Positions 1 through 48,901 are shown, counted from the first letter of the stretch. The stretch: DNA of 48,901 bases from a virus (IMGVR_UViG_3300045988_155985); one strand, 5' to 3'. The notes: generated by a model from the sequence alone, not told the origin. A program made the numbers and translations.

Positions 1-55
1 TTATACCCGAAACCGAGCGATACCCGCCCTGGTTAAACCGGAGATAACCCGATGA
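1..55 (+). promoter_or_regulatory. 3' part (conserved 5' leader and RBS) of the promoter-operator-leader cassette; identical to 48847-48901, so it continues from the window end
   Basis: Exact 55-bp identity between window start and window end; same leader precedes ATGs at 32394 and 41286. Confidence 0.5.
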
Positions 56-1209: not shown

Positions 1210-1620
1210 ATGGAAAAGAAAGAAGATAAACCGATTGCCATTGGTGCAGAGTCTGTTCCGTTTAAGTTTGAATTATCCCAACTGGTAACAATGCGTATCA
1301 GTGAAGAGTGGGGAGAAGTTCAAGCCCGTGCTCAGTATGCAAATGGCGAAAACCAGTATTTGATTCACTATCAGGCGGCTGATGGTCGTGCTACCACAGA
1401 GTGGTTCGGTGAATCGATGTTGATTGCGATGGAAGATGATCGTTATCCAGGCTGCCCTGTTTTTGCCTGTGTTGATTTGCCAGAAGGCGCGGTACTTGAA
1501 GACGACAAAGAAGAATGCTCGTCTGATGGCGAACTTGTCATTACCGGAATCGTTGATGGTAAGCCGGAATACTCTCGTATTGAGGTAAATAACGGCTGCC
1601 TTCGTTTGATCCCTGCGTAA
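1210..1620 (+). CDS. highly acidic hypothetical protein, 136 aa
   Basis: ORF track; by eye roughly 27 D/E against 9 K/R. Confidence 0.55.
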   Translation: MEKKEDKPIAIGAESVPFKFELSQLVTMRISEEWGEVQARAQYANGENQYLIHYQAADGRATTEWFGESMLIAMEDDRYPGCPVFACVDLPEGAVLEDDKEECSSDGELVITGIVDGKPEYSRIEVNNGCLRLIPA

Positions 1621-1854: not shown

Positions 1855-2478
1855 ATGACAAAACATCTTAATGTGGTTTCTTTACCACTTTCTGTGTTGA
1901 TTGGTTATGAAAAGAACGCTCGCACACACTCCGTGGAGCAGGTAGATCAGATTGTTGCCAGCATACAGGAGTACGGATGGACTAATCCGATCCTGATAGA
2001 CGAGAACAACGTTGTAATTGCTGGTCATGGTCGAATTGCTGCGGCCACTCAGTTGGGGATGGATGATGTTCCCTGCATTGTTCTGGCTGGGCTAACGGAG
2101 AATCAGAAGAAGGCATATCGTCTGGCCGACAACCGTATTCCGCTGAATGCTGGTTGGGATGAAGAGTTGTTAAGCGCGGAGCTTGCAGATCTTGCGGCCG
2201 ATGATTTTGCTCTGGACTCAATTGGTTTTACTCAGCGCGAACTGGATAACTTATTGAGTGCGGCGGTCTACGATGACACAGAGGGTATGGATATCCCATT
2301 TGAGAAGGATGAGGCCAAATCAGGCGTAAAAGTTCAGTACCTGTCATTTGGAGGTCATAAAATCCCGGCAACGGATGAGGAAGCGGATCGTTTTGACTGC
2401 GCGGTGTCTCGTTATGTTGATGATAATGGCAGCTATATCGGATTTGTATCCGCATTGCTGGCTGGGGAGGTGTGCTGA
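1855..2478 (+). CDS. ParB/Srx (ParB-like nuclease) domain protein, paralog A
   Basis: IAGHGR motif and NAGWD motif typical of ParB N-terminal domain; about 55% identical by eye to the 5145-5735 product. Confidence 0.7.
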   Translation: MTKHLNVVSLPLSVLIGYEKNARTHSVEQVDQIVASIQEYGWTNPILIDENNVVIAGHGRIAAATQLGMDDVPCIVLAGLTENQKKAYRLADNRIPLNAGWDEELLSAELADLAADDFALDSIGFTQRELDNLLSAAVYDDTEGMDIPFEKDEAKSGVKVQYLSFGGHKIPATDEEADRFDCAVSRYVDDNGSYIGFVSALLAGEVC

Positions 2479-3851
2479 TGCTTCACCTGAATTACGACAT
2501 AACGCACCTACGCGGCGCGGAATATAACCCGCGTTTTATCGGTGAGGATGATCTTGCGAGGCTGGCCGAAAGCGTCAGGGAGCTGGGGCTTGTGAAGCCA
2601 TTGATAGTGCGCGGCGATTTGCTGGTGGCGGGACACCAAAGGACGAAGGCGCTACGTAAGTTGGGAATAACGCGTGCTGCGGTGTATGTGTTGCCCTGTG
2701 AAACGACGGTATACGACGAAGTTCGGTTTAACCAACTGCATAACGGAACGGATTTTGATAGCGGAGATGAGCGTTGCAGGGTGTCCGGTCTGGAAGATAA
2801 GCATGGTTTTGTTCAGGTATCGGCAAGCCAGATCTCAGGCAATATGCGCGCGAAAATGGCATATGTTCGAAAGAACATAGCGGAACTGGTTATCAAGTAT
2901 GGTCCGTGGGGTGGTTGTGTTGCTACTCAGTCTGGTGAGGTTATTCACTGTGCTCAGTATGCATTAGCAGCGAAAATGACGCGCACACCGCTAACGGTGT
3001 TTGTGATCCCTGATGTTGAGAAGGAAAAATACCAAAGTTATCTGAATAAAACTTATGGTGTATTTGAGTATTCTCATCTGGAGAAAACAACATACATCCA
3101 GACGTATGCGCAGCTTATGCGGTTGCGTAATGGTGGCAGCCTGAAATCAAACCTGTATGAGTCGTTGATCCTCCCGATCATTGCCAAGACGCCAAGAGGA
3201 ATTGATTTTGGTTCGGGGCAGGGAGACTACGCGCGAATGCTCAGGGCAAAGGGATATAACCTGCATGATCTCGAGCTTTTCCGCCGTAAGGGCGCTGGAA
3301 ACACTCTGGATAGGACCGCAACAAACCGGATGATTGATACGCTGGTGGACGACTTAAAAACGCGAGGGCGTTACGACTACGTGATTTGCGATAGCGTTTT
3401 GAACTCGGTCGATAGTGTCGAGGCTGAATGGTCCGTTCTGACGGTTCTGAAAGGCCTGTGTAAAGCTGGTGGGTCAATATTCTTTTCTGGTCGTAGCCGT
3501 GGAGAGCTGGAAACAGTCCTGAAGCAAACACAAGCGGCGAGTTCCAAAAGCCGGCTTTATTTTATTGATCATAACGGTTTTACCGCGTTGTACCGGAAGG
3601 GGCACTGGTTTTACCAGAAGTTTCACTCTGATGATGAAGTGAAGCAGTTGTGTCGTGTACATGGTTTCAGGATTAAGCGGTCAATATTCAACTGTAAGAG
3701 CTGGTATTTGCACGTCATTAACGATGATTCCCTTAGTTGGGCGAGTCTGGAGAAAGCTGTTCGTTTTGAGTTTGAGTTGCCGTTGCCTGGTGGTTCAACA
3801 ATCGGACGATCTGATGATGTGCTGGCGGCTTTCCGGCCGTTGATTAAGTAG
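2478..3851 (+). CDS. fusion protein: ParB/Srx-like N-terminal domain plus class I SAM-dependent methyltransferase-like C-terminal domain
   Basis: N-terminal VAGHQRTKAL (ParB GxxR-like); C-terminal GIDFGSGQG (motif I-like), acidic post-I, YDYVICDSVL (motif II-like); ATG 2478 overlaps upstream stop (TGATG); no DPPY/NPPY motif seen. Confidence 0.6.
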   Translation: MLHLNYDITHLRGAEYNPRFIGEDDLARLAESVRELGLVKPLIVRGDLLVAGHQRTKALRKLGITRAAVYVLPCETTVYDEVRFNQLHNGTDFDSGDERCRVSGLEDKHGFVQVSASQISGNMRAKMAYVRKNIAELVIKYGPWGGCVATQSGEVIHCAQYALAAKMTRTPLTVFVIPDVEKEKYQSYLNKTYGVFEYSHLEKTTYIQTYAQLMRLRNGGSLKSNLYESLILPIIAKTPRGIDFGSGQGDYARMLRAKGYNLHDLELFRRKGAGNTLDRTATNRMIDTLVDDLKTRGRYDYVICDSVLNSVDSVEAEWSVLTVLKGLCKAGGSIFFSGRSRGELETVLKQTQAASSKSRLYFIDHNGFTALYRKGHWFYQKFHSDDEVKQLCRVHGFRIKRSIFNCKSWYLHVINDDSLSWASLEKAVRFEFELPLPGGSTIGRSDDVLAAFRPLIK

Positions 3852-3867
3852 TCTGTAGGAGGCGCTG

Positions 3868-4587
3868 GTGGCTGACAGAATTGAGATAAAGATGGATTTT
3901 TCTTCTCAGGATATTCAACGACAACTCCAGCGCCTTGAAGAACGCGAATTGCCGTTCGCAATGGCGCTTGCGGCAACCAGAACGGCAAAGGCTTCTCAGG
4001 CTGCGATTAAGAATGAAATTAATCGGGTATTTGACAGGCCCACGCCGTGGATTCAGAACTCTACTTACGTTTTGGCCGCAAAGAAGAGTGATCCTACAGC
4101 CATTGTGTATGCTCGTGAATGGGGAGGAACGCCAGCCCCTGTAACGTTGACTCCGCAAATCGAAGGTGGCCAACGACAGTACAAACGCTCAGAAGGGGCG
4201 CTAAGGGCTGGTGGATATTTGCCTAACGGCTGGCAGCTTGCTCCTGGTCCCGGCGCAAAGCTGGACAAGTACGGGAATATTTCGCGGGGGCAATTACAGC
4301 AGGTCTTATCTGGCCTAAGAGTTCAGCGAGATGCGCATCAAAATCGCCGTCAGGGCAAGCCTACGGAGTTTTTTGTTGTTCGACCTGGTACAAGTAACCC
4401 GCTTCAACCAGGCGTCTGGCAGCGCGTTGGGCGGCGTCCTACGTTGATCCTTACGTTTATCCAGCAACCTAACTATTCGCAGCGTCTTGATTGGCATGGC
4501 GTGGCGCTGCGTGCTGGTGAGGATGCGTTTGCTGATGAAGTCACAAAGGCTATTGATGACATTCTTTCTAAGACCTTCTCTCGTTAA
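3868..4587 (+). CDS. hypothetical protein, 239 aa
   Basis: ORF track; GTG start 6 nt after AGGAGG; no motif recognised. Confidence 0.5.
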   Translation: MADRIEIKMDFSSQDIQRQLQRLEERELPFAMALAATRTAKASQAAIKNEINRVFDRPTPWIQNSTYVLAAKKSDPTAIVYAREWGGTPAPVTLTPQIEGGQRQYKRSEGALRAGGYLPNGWQLAPGPGAKLDKYGNISRGQLQQVLSGLRVQRDAHQNRRQGKPTEFFVVRPGTSNPLQPGVWQRVGRRPTLILTFIQQPNYSQRLDWHGVALRAGEDAFADEVTKAIDDILSKTFSR

Positions 4588-4779
4588 TCATCGTGTGGTT
4601 GATGGTGTTGTTATGCAGAGTGTATTCACTGTGTTCTGTAGCGTCGCTCGCTGGCTGTCTGTGGGGGAGCACGAGCATCGTTTCATCGTCCGGCAGAATT
4701 GGGTCCTTCTGGCCAAAAGCGTTGGATGCGGGTCATTCGAACCCCGATGTTCGGCTAGCTAAACGTGAAAAAAGTTAGG

Positions 4780-5144
4780 TTAAAAGTTGCGGTAAAAGAA
4801 ATTTACTCATCTCATTGAAAAATATCGGGAAAACGTGATTTTTTGCTGTATTTGTGCTGGTAAAAAGAAAGTAGAAAATTTTCTTTTAGATCATCAAGAT
4901 ACGCGCAGATCTTTAACCAATGTGATGTTGTTCTGATAAAAATCGTTATAAATCATGCAAATACATCCAATCTTTTAACCAAAACACCATCGCAAGATCC
5001 TTTTTACTTATAAAAACTTAATAAAATCAGATAATTATGCTGGTTTGTGTGATTTTTTATGAGTAAAAAGATCGTCATTTTTCTCTTTTAGTATCAATAA
5101 GTTAAACAGTTTTCTTTAACCTGTTGTGTTATGGCGGTTAAAAA
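4780..5144. promoter_or_regulatory. AT-rich non-coding region upstream of the packaging genes; candidate cos/pac and/or late promoter region
   Basis: 365 bp without credible ORF; three direct repeats TCTTT(T)AACC at about 4910, 4971 and 5113; four GATC sites. Confidence 0.3.
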
Positions 5145-5735
5145 ATGGCTCTAAAAATCGAATATTTACCAGTCGGTAAGCTGCTCAGATATGCCAAAAA
5201 TTCACGGACTCATTCAGATGAGCAAGTTGAACAGTTGGTGAACAGTATCCGTGAGTTCGGTTTCACTAATCCTGTGCTGATCGATGAAAAGAATGAACTG
5301 ATTGCGGGGCATGGTCGGCTTGCAGCAGCCGAAATTCTGGAAATGGATAAAGTTCCGGCGATTCGGTTGAGTAACCTTTCTGAAAAACAGAAGAAGGCTT
5401 ACAGGATTGCAGATAACAAGCTGGCCTTAAATGCTGGCTGGGATATGCAGCTTCTGGCCGAAGAAGTCAAAGAGTTAATGGATGATGATTTTGATATTGA
5501 TCTGCTTGGGTTTAATGATGCAGAGCTTGACGAAATGTTAAGCGATGAACAGCCGCAGGAAGAAGACGATAATTCTTCCCCTGTTGTTCAAATTAAGTAC
5601 CTGGCTATTGATAAAGAACGTATTCCCGCGACGGATATGGAAATTGCATTGTTGCTGGATGTTTATCGTCAGTACCACGACGCGCATGAAACGCATGAGG
5701 GATTTGTTCAGTATCTTGCTAATGGTTGCAAGTAA
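5145..5735 (+). CDS. ParB/Srx (ParB-like nuclease) domain protein, paralog B
   Basis: IAGHGR and NAGWD motifs; immediately upstream of TerS. Confidence 0.7.
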   Translation: MALKIEYLPVGKLLRYAKNSRTHSDEQVEQLVNSIREFGFTNPVLIDEKNELIAGHGRLAAAEILEMDKVPAIRLSNLSEKQKKAYRIADNKLALNAGWDMQLLAEEVKELMDDDFDIDLLGFNDAELDEMLSDEQPQEEDDNSSPVVQIKYLAIDKERIPATDMEIALLLDVYRQYHDAHETHEGFVQYLANGCK

Positions 5736-6286
5736 TGGCCATCGTCAGTAAGTCAGAGTTTGCCCGCCGGAAAGGTATTTCTCCGGCAATGGTTACGAAG
5801 CTCTGTCGTTCCGGTCGCATTCCAGTGCTGAAAAGCGGCAAGCTGGATTTTGATAAAGCAAGTGCGGCTTATGAAGCGAGCCGACAGGTTGGTCGTGAGG
5901 TATCTGCTGAAAACGGAAAAAGAGGGCATGGGATATCTTCGGAACAACCAGAGTTACCCGCTGATGATGCCGGATTAGCTGGTGGTACTTCCGGTGTTGC
6001 GGTGCAATTCAACAAGGCTAAGACCGCAGAAAAAATTTATCAGGCAAAGCTGAAACGCCTTGAATTTGAAGAAAAGGAAGGCTCTCTCATCGCTAAAGAT
6101 GCGGTCAGGGATGATGCATTTCTGGCAGCTAATGAATTGCGTAGCCGCTTATTTAGTATTGCTCCAAGAGCAGCTCCCCGTTGTGAAGGCAAAACAGCCA
6201 GGGAGATCGAACGCATTATTGAAGACGAGATTAATTTTGCGCTTCAGGCGCTCCAGGAATCCCGATTTATTAAGCAGGAAGAATAA
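5735..6286 (+). CDS. terminase small subunit, Nu1-like HTH type
   Basis: N-terminal HTH-like segment SKSEFARRKGISPAMVTKLCRSGRIPV; position before large terminase; ATG 5735 overlaps upstream stop (track start 5726 is TTG). Confidence 0.6.
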   Translation: MAIVSKSEFARRKGISPAMVTKLCRSGRIPVLKSGKLDFDKASAAYEASRQVGREVSAENGKRGHGISSEQPELPADDAGLAGGTSGVAVQFNKAKTAEKIYQAKLKRLEFEEKEGSLIAKDAVRDDAFLAANELRSRLFSIAPRAAPRCEGKTAREIERIIEDEINFALQALQESRFIKQEE

Positions 6287-6291
6287 ACCTC

Positions 6292-8148
6292 ATGGGCGAA
6301 ACAGTATGGAGCACCGCTTTTTTCCGTGCGCTTCGCCCTAAATCACGGCTAACTGTTTCCGAATGGGCTGATAAGTATCGTCATGTAGCGCCGGGAACGT
6401 CTCCAGAGCCAGGGCCGTGGCGTACAAGCCGAGTGCCATATTTGCGTGAACCAATGGATGTTATTGGTGACGCTGATACAGAAACAGTAGTGATGCAATG
6501 TAGCTCGCAAATTGGTAAATCCGAATTACAGCTAAATGTTATGGGTTACTTTGCAGATCAGGAGCCATCTCCTCAGTTGATGATTTATCCAACGGTAGAG
6601 GCGGCTGAGGCTTTTTCAAAAGAGCGTATTGATCCGACGTTCAAATATTCCCCTGGTTTGAAACACAAGCTGCATGAAGGGAAAGAGGGGCGCGGTGCAG
6701 CCAAAAAGTCCAGCACGACTATACGTATGAAGCATTACGCTGGTGGATATATAGCACTTGTTGGTGCTAATTCCCCAGCAGGTCTTGCATCCAGGCCAAT
6801 TCGAATACTGTTAGCTGATGAGATTGATCGTTACGGTGTGACGCAGGAGGGCGACCCACTAAAACTAGGTATTCAGCGTACTACCAACTTTCATAATCGT
6901 AAGAAAGTTTTTGTTTCTACTCCTGTTTTGGAGGAAACGAGCAAAATCCACAAGTGGTTTAAGCTCTCCGATCAGCGTTACTACCATGTTCCTTGCCCAT
7001 GTTGTGGCACCATGCAGGTGATGAAATGGTCGCAAGTCAGATGGGATAAGAGCGATTCAGGTGAGGCGTTACCGGAAACGGCCAGATATGAGTGCTGTGA
7101 GTGCGGCGGGATTATGCGCGGATCTGGTAAACCAGACGTTGATTGGTTGGCGAAGGGGGTATGGATAGCTGAACATACTGGAGTTAAAGGTATTGTTGGT
7201 TTTCATATTAACAGTCTTTACTCCCCGTGGGTTGCATTGTCAGAGCTGGTTGAAGAATTTACGGAAGCAACCAGAAACCGCGATAAAAATGGATTAATGG
7301 AGTTTATTAACCTTAAGCTGGGTGAGCCATGGAAAGAGGATGCTAAAGACGATATCGATCCTGAATACTTGTTGCAACGCAGAATAAGGTTTGAAGAGTT
7401 TTTACCAGATGATGTTTTATTGTTAAGTGCTGGTGTTGACGTACAGGACACGTATTTAGTTTGTGAATTGGTCGGTTGGGGAAAAGGTAAGGAGTCATGG
7501 GGGATAGAATATAAAATATTCCCAGGTGATCCCGCACAAGATGTTGTCTGGAAACAACTTGATGAATACTTACTCCGTAGCTGGTCATTCCGTGACGGTC
7601 GAAAATTACAGATTTCTTCCGTTTGTATTGACTCTGGTGGGCATTTTACGACAGAGGTATATCGCTTTACTAAGCCGAGAGAATCAAGGCGAATATACTC
7701 TATCAGGGGGCGTGGTGGGGTAGGTTTACCATTTATAGGAAAGCCAAATAATAATAACCGTGTGGGTGCTATGTTGTTTAATTTGGGGGTTGATGATGGT
7801 AAAGGGACCATCATGGCAAGAATTAAACTACATGATCCTGGTCCTGGTTATATGCATTTCCCATTAGATTCTGACAGAGGATATGATACCGAATACTTTA
7901 AAGGATTATTATCAGAGAAAAAAATATTTGAATATAAAAATGGGCAGACAAAAGAAAAGTGGGTGAAAGTCTACGAGCGTAACGAACCTCTTGATTGCCG
8001 TAACTATGCAACTGCCGCGATGGAAATTCTGAACCCTAATTTTAACTGGCTTGCCGAACAGGAAATGCGAGGTAATGTGTATGTGCAGAACTCGTCAGGT
8101 ATACGTAGAAGACGCCGTAGAGTTATAAGTAAAGGCGTAACCATATAG
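6292..8148 (+). CDS. terminase large subunit, lambda gpA-like
   Basis: 618 aa; recalled similarity to gpA (VSEWAD near N-terminus, CPCCG zinc-finger-like segment); gene order TerS-TerL-W-portal. Confidence 0.85.
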   Translation: MGETVWSTAFFRALRPKSRLTVSEWADKYRHVAPGTSPEPGPWRTSRVPYLREPMDVIGDADTETVVMQCSSQIGKSELQLNVMGYFADQEPSPQLMIYPTVEAAEAFSKERIDPTFKYSPGLKHKLHEGKEGRGAAKKSSTTIRMKHYAGGYIALVGANSPAGLASRPIRILLADEIDRYGVTQEGDPLKLGIQRTTNFHNRKKVFVSTPVLEETSKIHKWFKLSDQRYYHVPCPCCGTMQVMKWSQVRWDKSDSGEALPETARYECCECGGIMRGSGKPDVDWLAKGVWIAEHTGVKGIVGFHINSLYSPWVALSELVEEFTEATRNRDKNGLMEFINLKLGEPWKEDAKDDIDPEYLLQRRIRFEEFLPDDVLLLSAGVDVQDTYLVCELVGWGKGKESWGIEYKIFPGDPAQDVVWKQLDEYLLRSWSFRDGRKLQISSVCIDSGGHFTTEVYRFTKPRESRRIYSIRGRGGVGLPFIGKPNNNNRVGAMLFNLGVDDGKGTIMARIKLHDPGPGYMHFPLDSDRGYDTEYFKGLLSEKKIFEYKNGQTKEKWVKVYERNEPLDCRNYATAAMEILNPNFNWLAEQEMRGNVYVQNSSGIRRRRRRVISKGVTI

Positions 8149-47813: not shown

Positions 47814-47889
47814 GGCCCCTTAGCTCAGTGGTTAGAGCAGGCGACTCATAATCGCACGGTCATCGGTTCAAATCCGGTAGGGGCCACCA
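47814..47889 (+). tRNA. tRNA with CAU anticodon (Met or lysidine-dependent Ile2; resembles ileX-type)
   Basis: Perfect 7-bp acceptor stem GGCCCCT/AGGGGCC; D-arm GCTC/GAGC; anticodon loop CTCATAA; T-arm with TTCAAAT; encoded 3' CCA. Confidence 0.85.
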
Positions 47890-48197: not shown

Positions 48198-48785
48198 ATG
48201 GAGGCAATTGCATTGTTTAATCTGATTTATGCAGATCCCCCCTGGGAATACAAAGACAAGTGTAAGGATGGGAATCGTGGCGCTGGTTTTAAGTATCCAA
48301 CGATGAAAGCTGAGGATATTGCTCGTATTCCTGTCTGGCAGCTTGCTAATCCTGAATCGTGTTTGTTGGCCATGTGGTGGGTTCCGACTCAGCCAGAAGA
48401 AGCGTTGCTGGTGGTGAAAGCATGGGGATTCAGGCTGATGACCATGAAGGGCTTCACATGGAACAAATGTGGTAGCCGACAGCCAGACAAGCTGGTGATG
48501 GGGATGGGGCATATGACTCGTGCAAACAGTGAAGATTGCTTGTTTGCGGTAAAAGGCAAACTGCCGACCCGCCTTGATGCGGGGATTATTCAGTCGTTTA
48601 CATCGCCTCGTCTGGAGCATTCTCGGAAGCCTGATGTGGTCCGTGACAAGCTGGTAAAGCTGTTAGGCGATGTTCCTCGTATTGAGCTGTTTGCTCGCGG
48701 TGATTTACCTGATGGCTGGCATGGCTGGGGCAACCAGTGCAACGGAGGTATCCAGTTGCATGATGCTCTCTGGCAAATGTCATAG
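48198..48785 (+). CDS. DNA N6-adenine methyltransferase, MT-A70 family
   Basis: LIYADPPWEY (DPPW motif); 195 aa. Confidence 0.75.
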   Translation: MEAIALFNLIYADPPWEYKDKCKDGNRGAGFKYPTMKAEDIARIPVWQLANPESCLLAMWWVPTQPEEALLVVKAWGFRLMTMKGFTWNKCGSRQPDKLVMGMGHMTRANSEDCLFAVKGKLPTRLDAGIIQSFTSPRLEHSRKPDVVRDKLVKLLGDVPRIELFARGDLPDGWHGWGNQCNGGIQLHDALWQMS

Positions 48786-48901
48786 AATTATATAATTATA
48801 GATTTATATAAAAAATGCTTTACAGGTGGGAAAAAATTTCCTAAGGTTATACCCGAAACCGAGCGATACCCGCCCTGGTTAAACCGGAGATAACCCGATG
48901 A
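48786..48901 (+). promoter_or_regulatory. promoter-operator-leader cassette, copy D (same physical copy as window start on the circle)
   Basis: AT-rich repeat 48786-48815; TTTACA 48819-48824; spacer with GGAAA-AAA-TTTCC; TAAGGT 48842-48847; leader continues as 1-55. Confidence 0.5.

Follow-up and report, generated by a model that had tools for sequence, protein, structure and literature searches.

The 48,901-nucleotide viral DNA IMGVR_UViG_3300045988_155985 (hereafter the window, from whose first letter all positions are counted) belongs to a circular Escherichia coli phage-plasmid, and its interval 1855–5735 carries four open reading frames (ORFs) on the plus strand, all of which are present as a preliminary description had listed them. 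Specifically, these encode ParB1 (1855–2478), a short ParB/Srx-fold protein of 207 aa; a fusion of ParB/Srx folds to a class I S-adenosylmethionine (SAM) methyltransferase (2478–3851); a 239-aa protein whose function is unassigned (3868–4587); and ParB2 (5145–5735), a short ParB/Srx-fold paralogue of 196 aa. The gene order is ParB1, fusion, 239-aa gene, a probable cos site, ParB2 and then the small (TerS) and large (TerL) terminase subunits, and the genes that flank the ParB genes are lysis-region and terminase genes. The ParB-cassette genes have already been sequenced many times and are annotated in RefSeq, and their architecture is catalogued in the literature. Our analysis points to ParB1 and the fusion as a widespread, uncharacterised cassette, the likeliest role of which is methylation of phage DNA at the time of packaging.

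ParB1 and the fusion form one conserved accessory cassette of ~2 kb that is translationally coupled, as the stop codon of ParB1 and the start codon of the fusion overlap in TGATG, with GGAGG upstream. The cassette lies between the lysis and packaging genes and on the same strand as both. An IMG/VR scan with the fusion yielded 76 loci, 56 of which are informative in that they contain a full-length fusion and sufficient upstream sequence. A ParB1/ParB2-like ORF directly precedes the fusion in 55 of these 56 viral loci, mostly overlapping it, down to ~32% fusion identity, and we regard ParB1 as an obligate partner encoded upstream of the fusion. Additionally, the fusion is preceded, immediately or at a short distance, by a ParB_N protein of ~200 aa in prophages of Bradyrhizobium and Klebsiella (the latter lambdoid) and in a metagenomic phage. 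Downstream of the fusion, gpA-type terminases are found in about 25 loci, and Terminase_6, Terminase_3 or TerL_ATPase-type terminases together with several portal families in the remaining ones, so that at least four terminase families accompany the cassette. ParB1 and the fusion are both missing from the viral contigs L087 and L088, which the fusion scan did not return. In both, a homologue of the gene at window 1210–1620 directly precedes the 239-aa gene, which is kept along with the intergenic region including cos, ParB2, TerS and TerL at ~75% DNA identity. Because L087 and L088 miss exactly that pair, the variable unit is ParB1 plus the fusion only. As a separate observation, an opposite-strand cluster in a Bradyrhizobium prophage (L005, 11054–17196) adjoins the ParB and ParB-methyltransferase pair; it encodes Amidoligase_2, two GGACT/AIG2-like proteins and an MTS/N6_Mtase-like protein, and looks like a further modification gene set, with a Terminase_3 gene coming after the cluster in the sister loci L006 and L007.

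ParB1 and ParB2 are paralogues, as had been reported, with about 48–49% protein identity (E 5e-62), and PHROG 620 covers both end to end (E 4e-74 for ParB1, 4.6e-75 for ParB2). Against the Pfam ParB_N (PF02195) threshold of 26.3 bits, ParB2 passes with 33.7 bits, whereas ParB1 (23.9 bits) and the N-terminus of the fusion (24.3 bits) fall just under. In ParB1, an N-domain bearing NxR and GHGR motifs is followed by a C-terminal module that is conserved; both parts are shared with ParB2, and the C-terminal module is common to the partner ParBs. In the alignment of the short ParBs, G55 and H56 are conserved and R58 is nearly invariant, in line with the GxxR of Box II. The preliminary description had read the two genes as duplication copies that bound an inserted module composed of the fusion, the 239-aa gene and AT-rich DNA. 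The paralogues do flank this interval in the same orientation, and they share both the N-domain and the C-terminal module. However, they are only 48% identical as proteins and highly diverged as DNA, and in a neighbour-joining tree, which carries no bootstrap support and with which the pairwise identities agree, ParB1 groups with the partner ParBs of the enterobacterial phages L019–L022 to the exclusion of the ParB2 clade. ParB1 is 53% identical to the L019 partner versus 49% to ParB2. Protein identity, DNA divergence and the tree together rule out a recent tandem ParB duplication, while L087 and L088, a natural presence/absence variant that removes ParB1 and the fusion alone, rule out ParB1 and ParB2 as the boundaries of an insertion. 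The 239-aa gene and cos, moreover, belong to gpA-type packaging modules, and these observations contradict the duplication-boundary explanation, which we consider very improbable. Given the 48% identity and its branching outside ParB1 and the nearest orthologues of ParB1, ParB2 is an old paralogue and a separate addition to the locus, not a duplication scar.

The fusion begins at ATG 2478, where its homologues also begin, and comprises 457 aa; the length of 459 aa given previously counts from an upstream GTG at 2472. PHROG 5475 matches it end to end (E 1.6e-265; residues 3–459 of 459 in GTG-start numbering, profile positions 1–457 of 458), and the fusion has at least 781 homologues. In a confident single-chain AlphaFold2 model (pLDDT 94.8, pTM 0.90), its architecture is predicted to be two tandem ParB/Srx folds followed by a generic class I methyltransferase. 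The first fold, N1 (residues ~1–92, 2478–2753), contains the invariant motifs Y16-N-P-R19 and A51-G-H-Q-R55. Its family profile matches Spo0J (6sdk) with an E of 1.1e-8, with YNPR aligned to NPYQPR and AGHQR to AGERR, and an hhalign comparison of N1 with the short-ParB family gives an E of 2e-16 over 70 columns at 27% identity. Box II of N1 is thus intact, GHQR55 being invariant across the fusion family. The second fold, N2 (residues 96–216, 2763–3125), is a degenerate ParB/Srx fold, in which the Box II motif is absent and no arginine occupies the aligned position; this middle domain is as similar to sulfiredoxin, SbnI and a serine kinase as it is to ParB.

The methyltransferase domain (residues ~225–457, 3150–3848) comprises a Rossmann class I SAM-binding fold and C-terminal helices. 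Pfam Methyltransf_23 (PF13489) matches with 32.6 bits, above its cut-off of 27, and the domain has motif I (GxGxG), the acidic residue of motif II and the Rossmann fold of class I SAM methyltransferases. The Pfam and PHROG matches therefore bear out the earlier reading of a class I SAM methyltransferase fused to a ParB/Srx fold beside packaging genes, with the methyltransferase part above its profile threshold and the ParB_N part just short of its own. Residues D243-F-G-x-G247, E266 and D305/N309 are invariant, and since the SAM-binding motifs are invariant across 87 fusion homologues and the model is confident, the domain is likely an active enzyme. A search of the fusion for [DNS]PP[YFW] was empty, in agreement with the earlier remark that it lacks a DPPY-type motif; PF01555 gave no match, and PHROG 498 and the PADLOC model match the ParB module only. 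Nor does the fusion resemble a C5-methyltransferase: a PC dipeptide, the catalytic motif of that class, occurs just once, at residue 73 within the ParB domain, PF00145 gave no match, and C304 falls outside the columns that are invariant or nearly so in the fusion family.

A ParB fold on an element that is maintained as a plasmid could in principle contribute to its life as a plasmid, whether by partition with ParA or by silencing transcription of the prophage-plasmid in the manner of KorB. Identical runs of 55 bases stand at the two ends of the window (1–55 and 48847–48901) and close the contig into a circle of about 48,846 bp, so that genes near the two window ends are neighbours. Of 5426 complete E. 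coli genomes, 72, that of ATCC 25922 among them, contain ~48 kb plasmids that match the studied region at 99% identity or more, and 78 of the 79 matching places in these genomes are plasmid-borne; identity of at least 99% also extends to three Yersinia phage records and one Escherichia phage record. According to its RefSeq annotation, the ATCC 25922 plasmid encodes a contractile-tail phage together with RepA, ParA, a repressor and a toxin-antitoxin pair, and its ParA lies ~12 kb from the ParB genes, adjoining a small gene of its own. The element is therefore a phage-plasmid whose partition system is located elsewhere on it. ParB1, ParB2 and the fusion do share with the partition ParBs of the Spo0J/TIGR00180 type the N-terminal fold and the NPR and GxxR motifs, the family profile of the fusion matches 6sdk (E 1e-8), and weak matches to TIGR00180 and Noc models were obtained. 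However, the TIGR00180 scores are 16–40 bits versus a cut-off of 58.45 and cover the N-domain only, which is the only part that domain searches detected; these searches found neither the helix-turn-helix nor the C-terminal dimerisation domain of canonical partition ParBs, no parA is adjacent, and GERR is replaced by GHQR or GHGR. Additionally, the cassette also occurs in chromosomally integrated prophages, and the ParB genes stand between lysis and packaging genes. Domain content and the separate ParA locus rule out a partition function, and we give a plasmid-lifestyle role as a whole hardly any credence.

Downstream of the cassette, and not part of it, lies the packaging backbone, which runs from the 239-aa gene through the cos region to ParB2-TerS-TerL. 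Both the 239-aa gene and the intergenic region are assigned to it because they are kept in L087 and L088 and because distant homologues of the gene lie directly upstream of Nu1/gpA terminase genes without any ParB (for instance L169, 6001–6726, and L170, 6001–6747). The 239-aa protein has no Pfam, NCBIfam or PDB sequence match, in keeping with its earlier description as unknown, yet it is no orphan, having 106 homologues and a PHROG 1924 match of E 2.5e-97. The PHROG label, "minor tail", looks doubtful, and a packaging-linked role is possible; members of this family are regularly the last gene before cos/TerS of gpA-type phages. TerS (5735–6286, plus strand) matches PHROG 57 (E 7.4e-42), and TerL (6292–8148, plus strand) is of the lambda gpA type (Pfam GpA_ATPase E 7e-76, GpA_nuclease E 2e-84). 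A cosN with 12-nt cohesive ends, as in lambda, is probable at 4731–4742 (GGTCATTCGAAC). Two Yersinia phage records, vB_YpM_39 and vB_YpM_44, start at window positions 4731 and 4743, an offset of exactly 12 nt that corresponds to GGTCATTCGAAC; both records are marked circular, and the assignment draws on their start points. In line with this, aligning the intergenic regions of four relatives reveals a single long near-invariant block, GGGTCATTCG.ACCCCG, which has inverted flanks and covers window 4728–4746. A cos at this position would place ParB1, the fusion and the 239-aa gene at one end of the packaged DNA and ParB2 at the other, so that the two groups would be adjacent only in the circular or concatemeric form.

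The AT-rich character of the tract that follows was likewise described correctly (4780–5144, GC 0.285 versus 0.445 for the whole window). Five of the eight matches to YTTTAACC in the 48.9-kb window fall within the 366 bp of 4778–5143, with the outer pair in minus-strand and the inner three in plus-strand orientation, and related GTTAACC-type repeats are seen in the relative L018. The tract is plausibly a terminase recognition region, a candidate counterpart of cosB, and its repeats could be binding sites of the small terminase or of ParB2. A sigma-70 promoter scan of the intergenic region found none. ParB2 is the first gene after the probable cos, and its overlap with the start of TerS in TAATG couples the two translationally. 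These features raise the alternative that the ParB-like proteins are packaging accessory factors, in which ParB2, and perhaps ParB1, would bind near cos and aid the terminase in recognising or cutting DNA, or act as nucleases, with the methyltransferase secondary or regulatory. Besides the position of ParB2 over the TerS start and the five repeats between cos and ParB2, this explanation draws on solitary ParBs of ~200 aa that directly precede TerS-TerL in other phages (L094, which abuts TerS, and L105, upstream of TerL) and on the historical label of the family, "ParB-like nuclease". However, the distant phages that combine the 239-aa gene with a gpA terminase have no ParB between cos and TerS, and ParB is therefore not required for a gpA-type packaging system. 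Furthermore, domain searches detected no DNA-binding or nuclease domain, and the invariant SAM-binding residues of the fusion argue for catalysis. We consider an accessory packaging role improbable as an account of the locus as a whole; it may still hold for ParB2 alone, which L087 and L088 carry without the fusion and which may well have a packaging-related role of its own.

Judged by its gene arrangement, the locus corresponds to the published ParB-terminase large subunit (ParB-Tls) type, as defined in passages of two reports (PMC6536676, PMC4738411). For such loci, DNA modification during packaging was predicted (Iyer et al. 2013, via PMC6536676 and PMC4738411), and the same passages note that the ParB-like proteins may be fused to methyltransferases. 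The 76 related loci fit this pattern, in which a modification enzyme and a ParB-like gene directly precede the terminase genes, and the modifying or self-marking role suggested in the preliminary description thus agrees in outline with a published prediction. The enzymes enumerated in these passages are N6A/N4C and 5mC DNA methyltransferases and hypermodification enzymes, whereas the present fusion carries a generic Methyltransf_23 domain without DNA methyltransferase motifs and, unlike the enzymes described there, is paired with a further ParB protein and contains a second ParB fold of its own.

A closer connection to DNA methylation comes from the ParB module itself. Both ParB1 and ParB2 align with the ParB module, the first ~150 residues, of a ParB-DNA methyltransferase model, with E values of 3e-37 to 1e-40. 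In PADLOC (MTase_II, PDLC03229), this module is the sole part of the methyltransferase model that is matched, and membership of a defence system was rejected on that ground. A second IMG/VR scan, which used a narrow short-ParB alignment, returned more than 600 module relatives, and among the best 80 loci, which were the ones examined, 48 carry an ORF for a DPPY-type methyltransferase. Most of these ORFs encode ParB fusions of ~400–460 aa with DPPY or SPPY, commonly adjoin TerS/TerL and sometimes occur as tandem pairs. The first ~140 aa of ParB1 and ParB2 are 50–64% identical to the ParB module of these PHROG 498/PDLC03229 [D/S]PPY fusions, which occupy the same place; in contrast to them, the present fusion lacks the catalytic DPPY/SPPY motif, and its own ParB domain is only distantly related. 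A DPPY-type methyltransferase occurs in 2 of the 76 fusion loci, and the fusion in none of the 48 DPPY loci. The Methyltransf_23 cassette and the DPPY module thus look like alternative occupants of one slot, and this near mutual exclusion, together with the shared ParB module, gives indirect but real support to a DNA-directed role of the fusion. The orphan ParB-methyltransferase fusions mentioned in the preliminary description are accordingly not of the present kind: they are DPPY-type enzymes of a different methyltransferase family, apparently the alternative in the same slot.

Among the module relatives, six loci (L121, L134, L153, L154, L156 and L161) each encode an SPPY and a DPPY ParB-methyltransferase fusion side by side, and in most of these loci TerS/TerL lie downstream. 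Others (L089–L102, L109, L120 and L122) have ORFs of ~260–330 aa with a ParB module that is about 60% identical over ~140 aa, followed by a C-terminal region of at least roughly 120 aa in which no DPPY motif occurs. M.EcoGII was considered as a ParB-fused prophage methyltransferase and rejected. For the plasmid methyltransferases M.EcoGIX and M.BceJIII, ParB homologues figure in the relevant passages only as neighbouring leading-region genes, and these enzymes were not used as evidence; a paper on a Sinorhizobium prophage does not mention ParB.

With regard to the ligand of the ParB fold, passages of Kaljević et al. 2025 (PMC12704722) place Methyltransf_23 among the domains most often fused to a ParB fold in phages and describe such fusions as enriched in phages and prophages. 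The "Mtase23" protein tested there, which has the same two Pfam domains and a Box II motif, GHQRTKA, identical to residues 52–58 of the present fusion, bound ATP in the DRaCALA assay. It derives from an alphaproteobacterial genome and is compared here by domains and Box II motif alone, and the passages that deal with it mention no obligate partner ParB, tandem ParB folds or substrate. Because an ATP-binding protein has the identical Box II motif, ATP is a more likely ligand of the fusion than CTP. The CTP binding proposed earlier therefore finds no counterpart in the only tested protein of this architecture with GHQRTKA, as reported in those passages.

Two further systems are informative by analogy. 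The phage thymine dioxygenase 5mYOX176 needs a ParB-like partner, ParB176, specifically to act on double-stranded DNA (dsDNA) (O'Toole et al. 2026, PMC13229309). ParB176 has no obvious DNA-binding domain and is encoded beside the DNA-modifying enzyme, and terminases frequently co-occur (PMC13229309). 5mYOX176 is a Fe/2OG dioxygenase that is not fused to a ParB, and ParB176 can be likened to ParB1 and ParB2 by arrangement alone; taken as an analogue, the pair offers a working precedent for a ParB as an enzyme activator. Additionally, the two-gene layout of ParB1 and the ParB-methyltransferase fusion is paralleled by the GmrS/GmrSD doublet of ECOR17, a Type IV restriction enzyme made up of a ParB_N-like-only protein and a ParB_N-like/effector protein (PMC12373910). 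This doublet differs in that it belongs to the DUF262 branch of the fold, has a DGQQR motif and an HNH nuclease effector, and is a host defence system.

Taken together, these findings suggest a model, to which we assign about an even chance, in which a late-expressed, nucleotide-gated ParB adaptor and its methyltransferase mark phage DNA around packaging. The cassette would be expressed late, as its place in the gene order suggests, and the first ParB fold of the fusion would bind a nucleotide, probably ATP. N1 and ParB1, which may form a complex given their linkage, would constitute a nucleotide-gated adaptor, possibly together with the degenerate N2. This adaptor would place or activate the SAM-dependent methyltransferase on replicated phage dsDNA at about the time when packaging takes place, and progeny DNA would leave the cell with a methyl mark that is neither of the standard DPPY type nor of the C5 type. 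Such a mark could blunt restriction in the next host or separate phage DNA from host DNA.

Several points weigh against this model. For the family as a whole, a DNA substrate is deduced indirectly. Late expression rests on gene order, no promoter having been identified, and the complex of ParB1 with the fusion is deduced from their linkage. The methyltransferase domain lacks the catalytic motifs of known DNA adenine and cytosine amino- or C5-methyltransferases, and its nearest structural neighbours act on small molecules, tRNA and mRNA caps. Domain searches detected no recognisable DNA-binding domain in ParB1, ParB2 or the fusion. Moreover, the thymine dioxygenase system still functioned when the NTP-site residues of its ParB were mutated (PMC13229309), and the nucleotide-switch step may therefore be dispensable.

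The main rival to packaging-time DNA methylation, which we consider possible though rather unlikely, is an active methyltransferase with a non-DNA substrate, such as RNA (for example host or phage tRNA), a packaging or capsid protein, or else some nucleotide or small molecule that the ParB/Srx folds bind; proximity to the terminase would then reflect late timing only. The closest structural neighbours of the domain, namely Trm9, METTL6, UbiG, cap guanine-N7 and other small-molecule methyltransferases, favour this alternative, as does a fusion without DNA methyltransferase motifs. The resemblance of the middle domain to sulfiredoxin, SbnI and a serine kinase, as near as that to ParB, points in the same direction, since ParB/Srx folds serve as ATP-using enzymes in sulfiredoxin, serine kinases and SbnI, and the family member described in the passages of PMC12704722 bound ATP, not CTP. 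However, the partner ParB module is the one that is fused to DPPY methyltransferases in the same, nearly mutually exclusive slot, and the strict linkage of the cassette to four terminase families fits a role in DNA or packaging.

If the DNA model is taken further, a two-component, ATP-gated ParB-fold machine could install a phage-DNA methyl mark of a novel kind at packaging, a proposal that we regard as unlikely. The target could be, for example, a ring nitrogen, an exocyclic oxygen or the phosphate backbone, and the mark could confer protection from, or sensitivity to, host defences. If true, a DNA modification that has so far escaped notice would be common to phages of many bacterial groups.

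The fusion family, with its homologues in phages of Enterobacteriaceae, rhizobia and metagenomes, is large, and modification of phage DNA at packaging by ParB-terminase loci has long been predicted and rarely tested. As the methyltransferase is of no known DNA-modifying type, knowledge of its substrate could bring to light a new mark on phage DNA or, alternatively, extend the targets of ParB-terminase loci to substrates other than DNA. Three features, namely strict pairing with a second ParB, a pseudo-ParB fold inside the fusion and ATP binding by a protein with an identical Box II, also offer a concrete model of a ParB fold reused as an enzyme adaptor. The element is tractable: the reference strain E. 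coli ATCC 25922 carries it as a ~48 kb plasmid, and some of its relatives form plaques.

Two further genes are found between the lysis region and the ParB cassette. The first encodes an MT-A70 family methyltransferase (48198–48785, plus strand; Pfam MT-A70 E 4e-23, and annotated as such on the ATCC 25922 plasmid in RefSeq), located in the same late region ~2.5 kb upstream of ParB1 on the circle; it represents a second, conventional candidate methyltransferase. The other is a tRNA with a CAT anticodon at 47814–47889, assigned to Met by ARAGORN and to Ile by RefSeq. The GC content of the cassette and the 239-aa gene (1855–4587) is 0.48–0.52, that of ParB2 and the terminase genes (5145–8148) is 0.43–0.45, and the window average is 0.445; this contrast is a weak hint of different origins.

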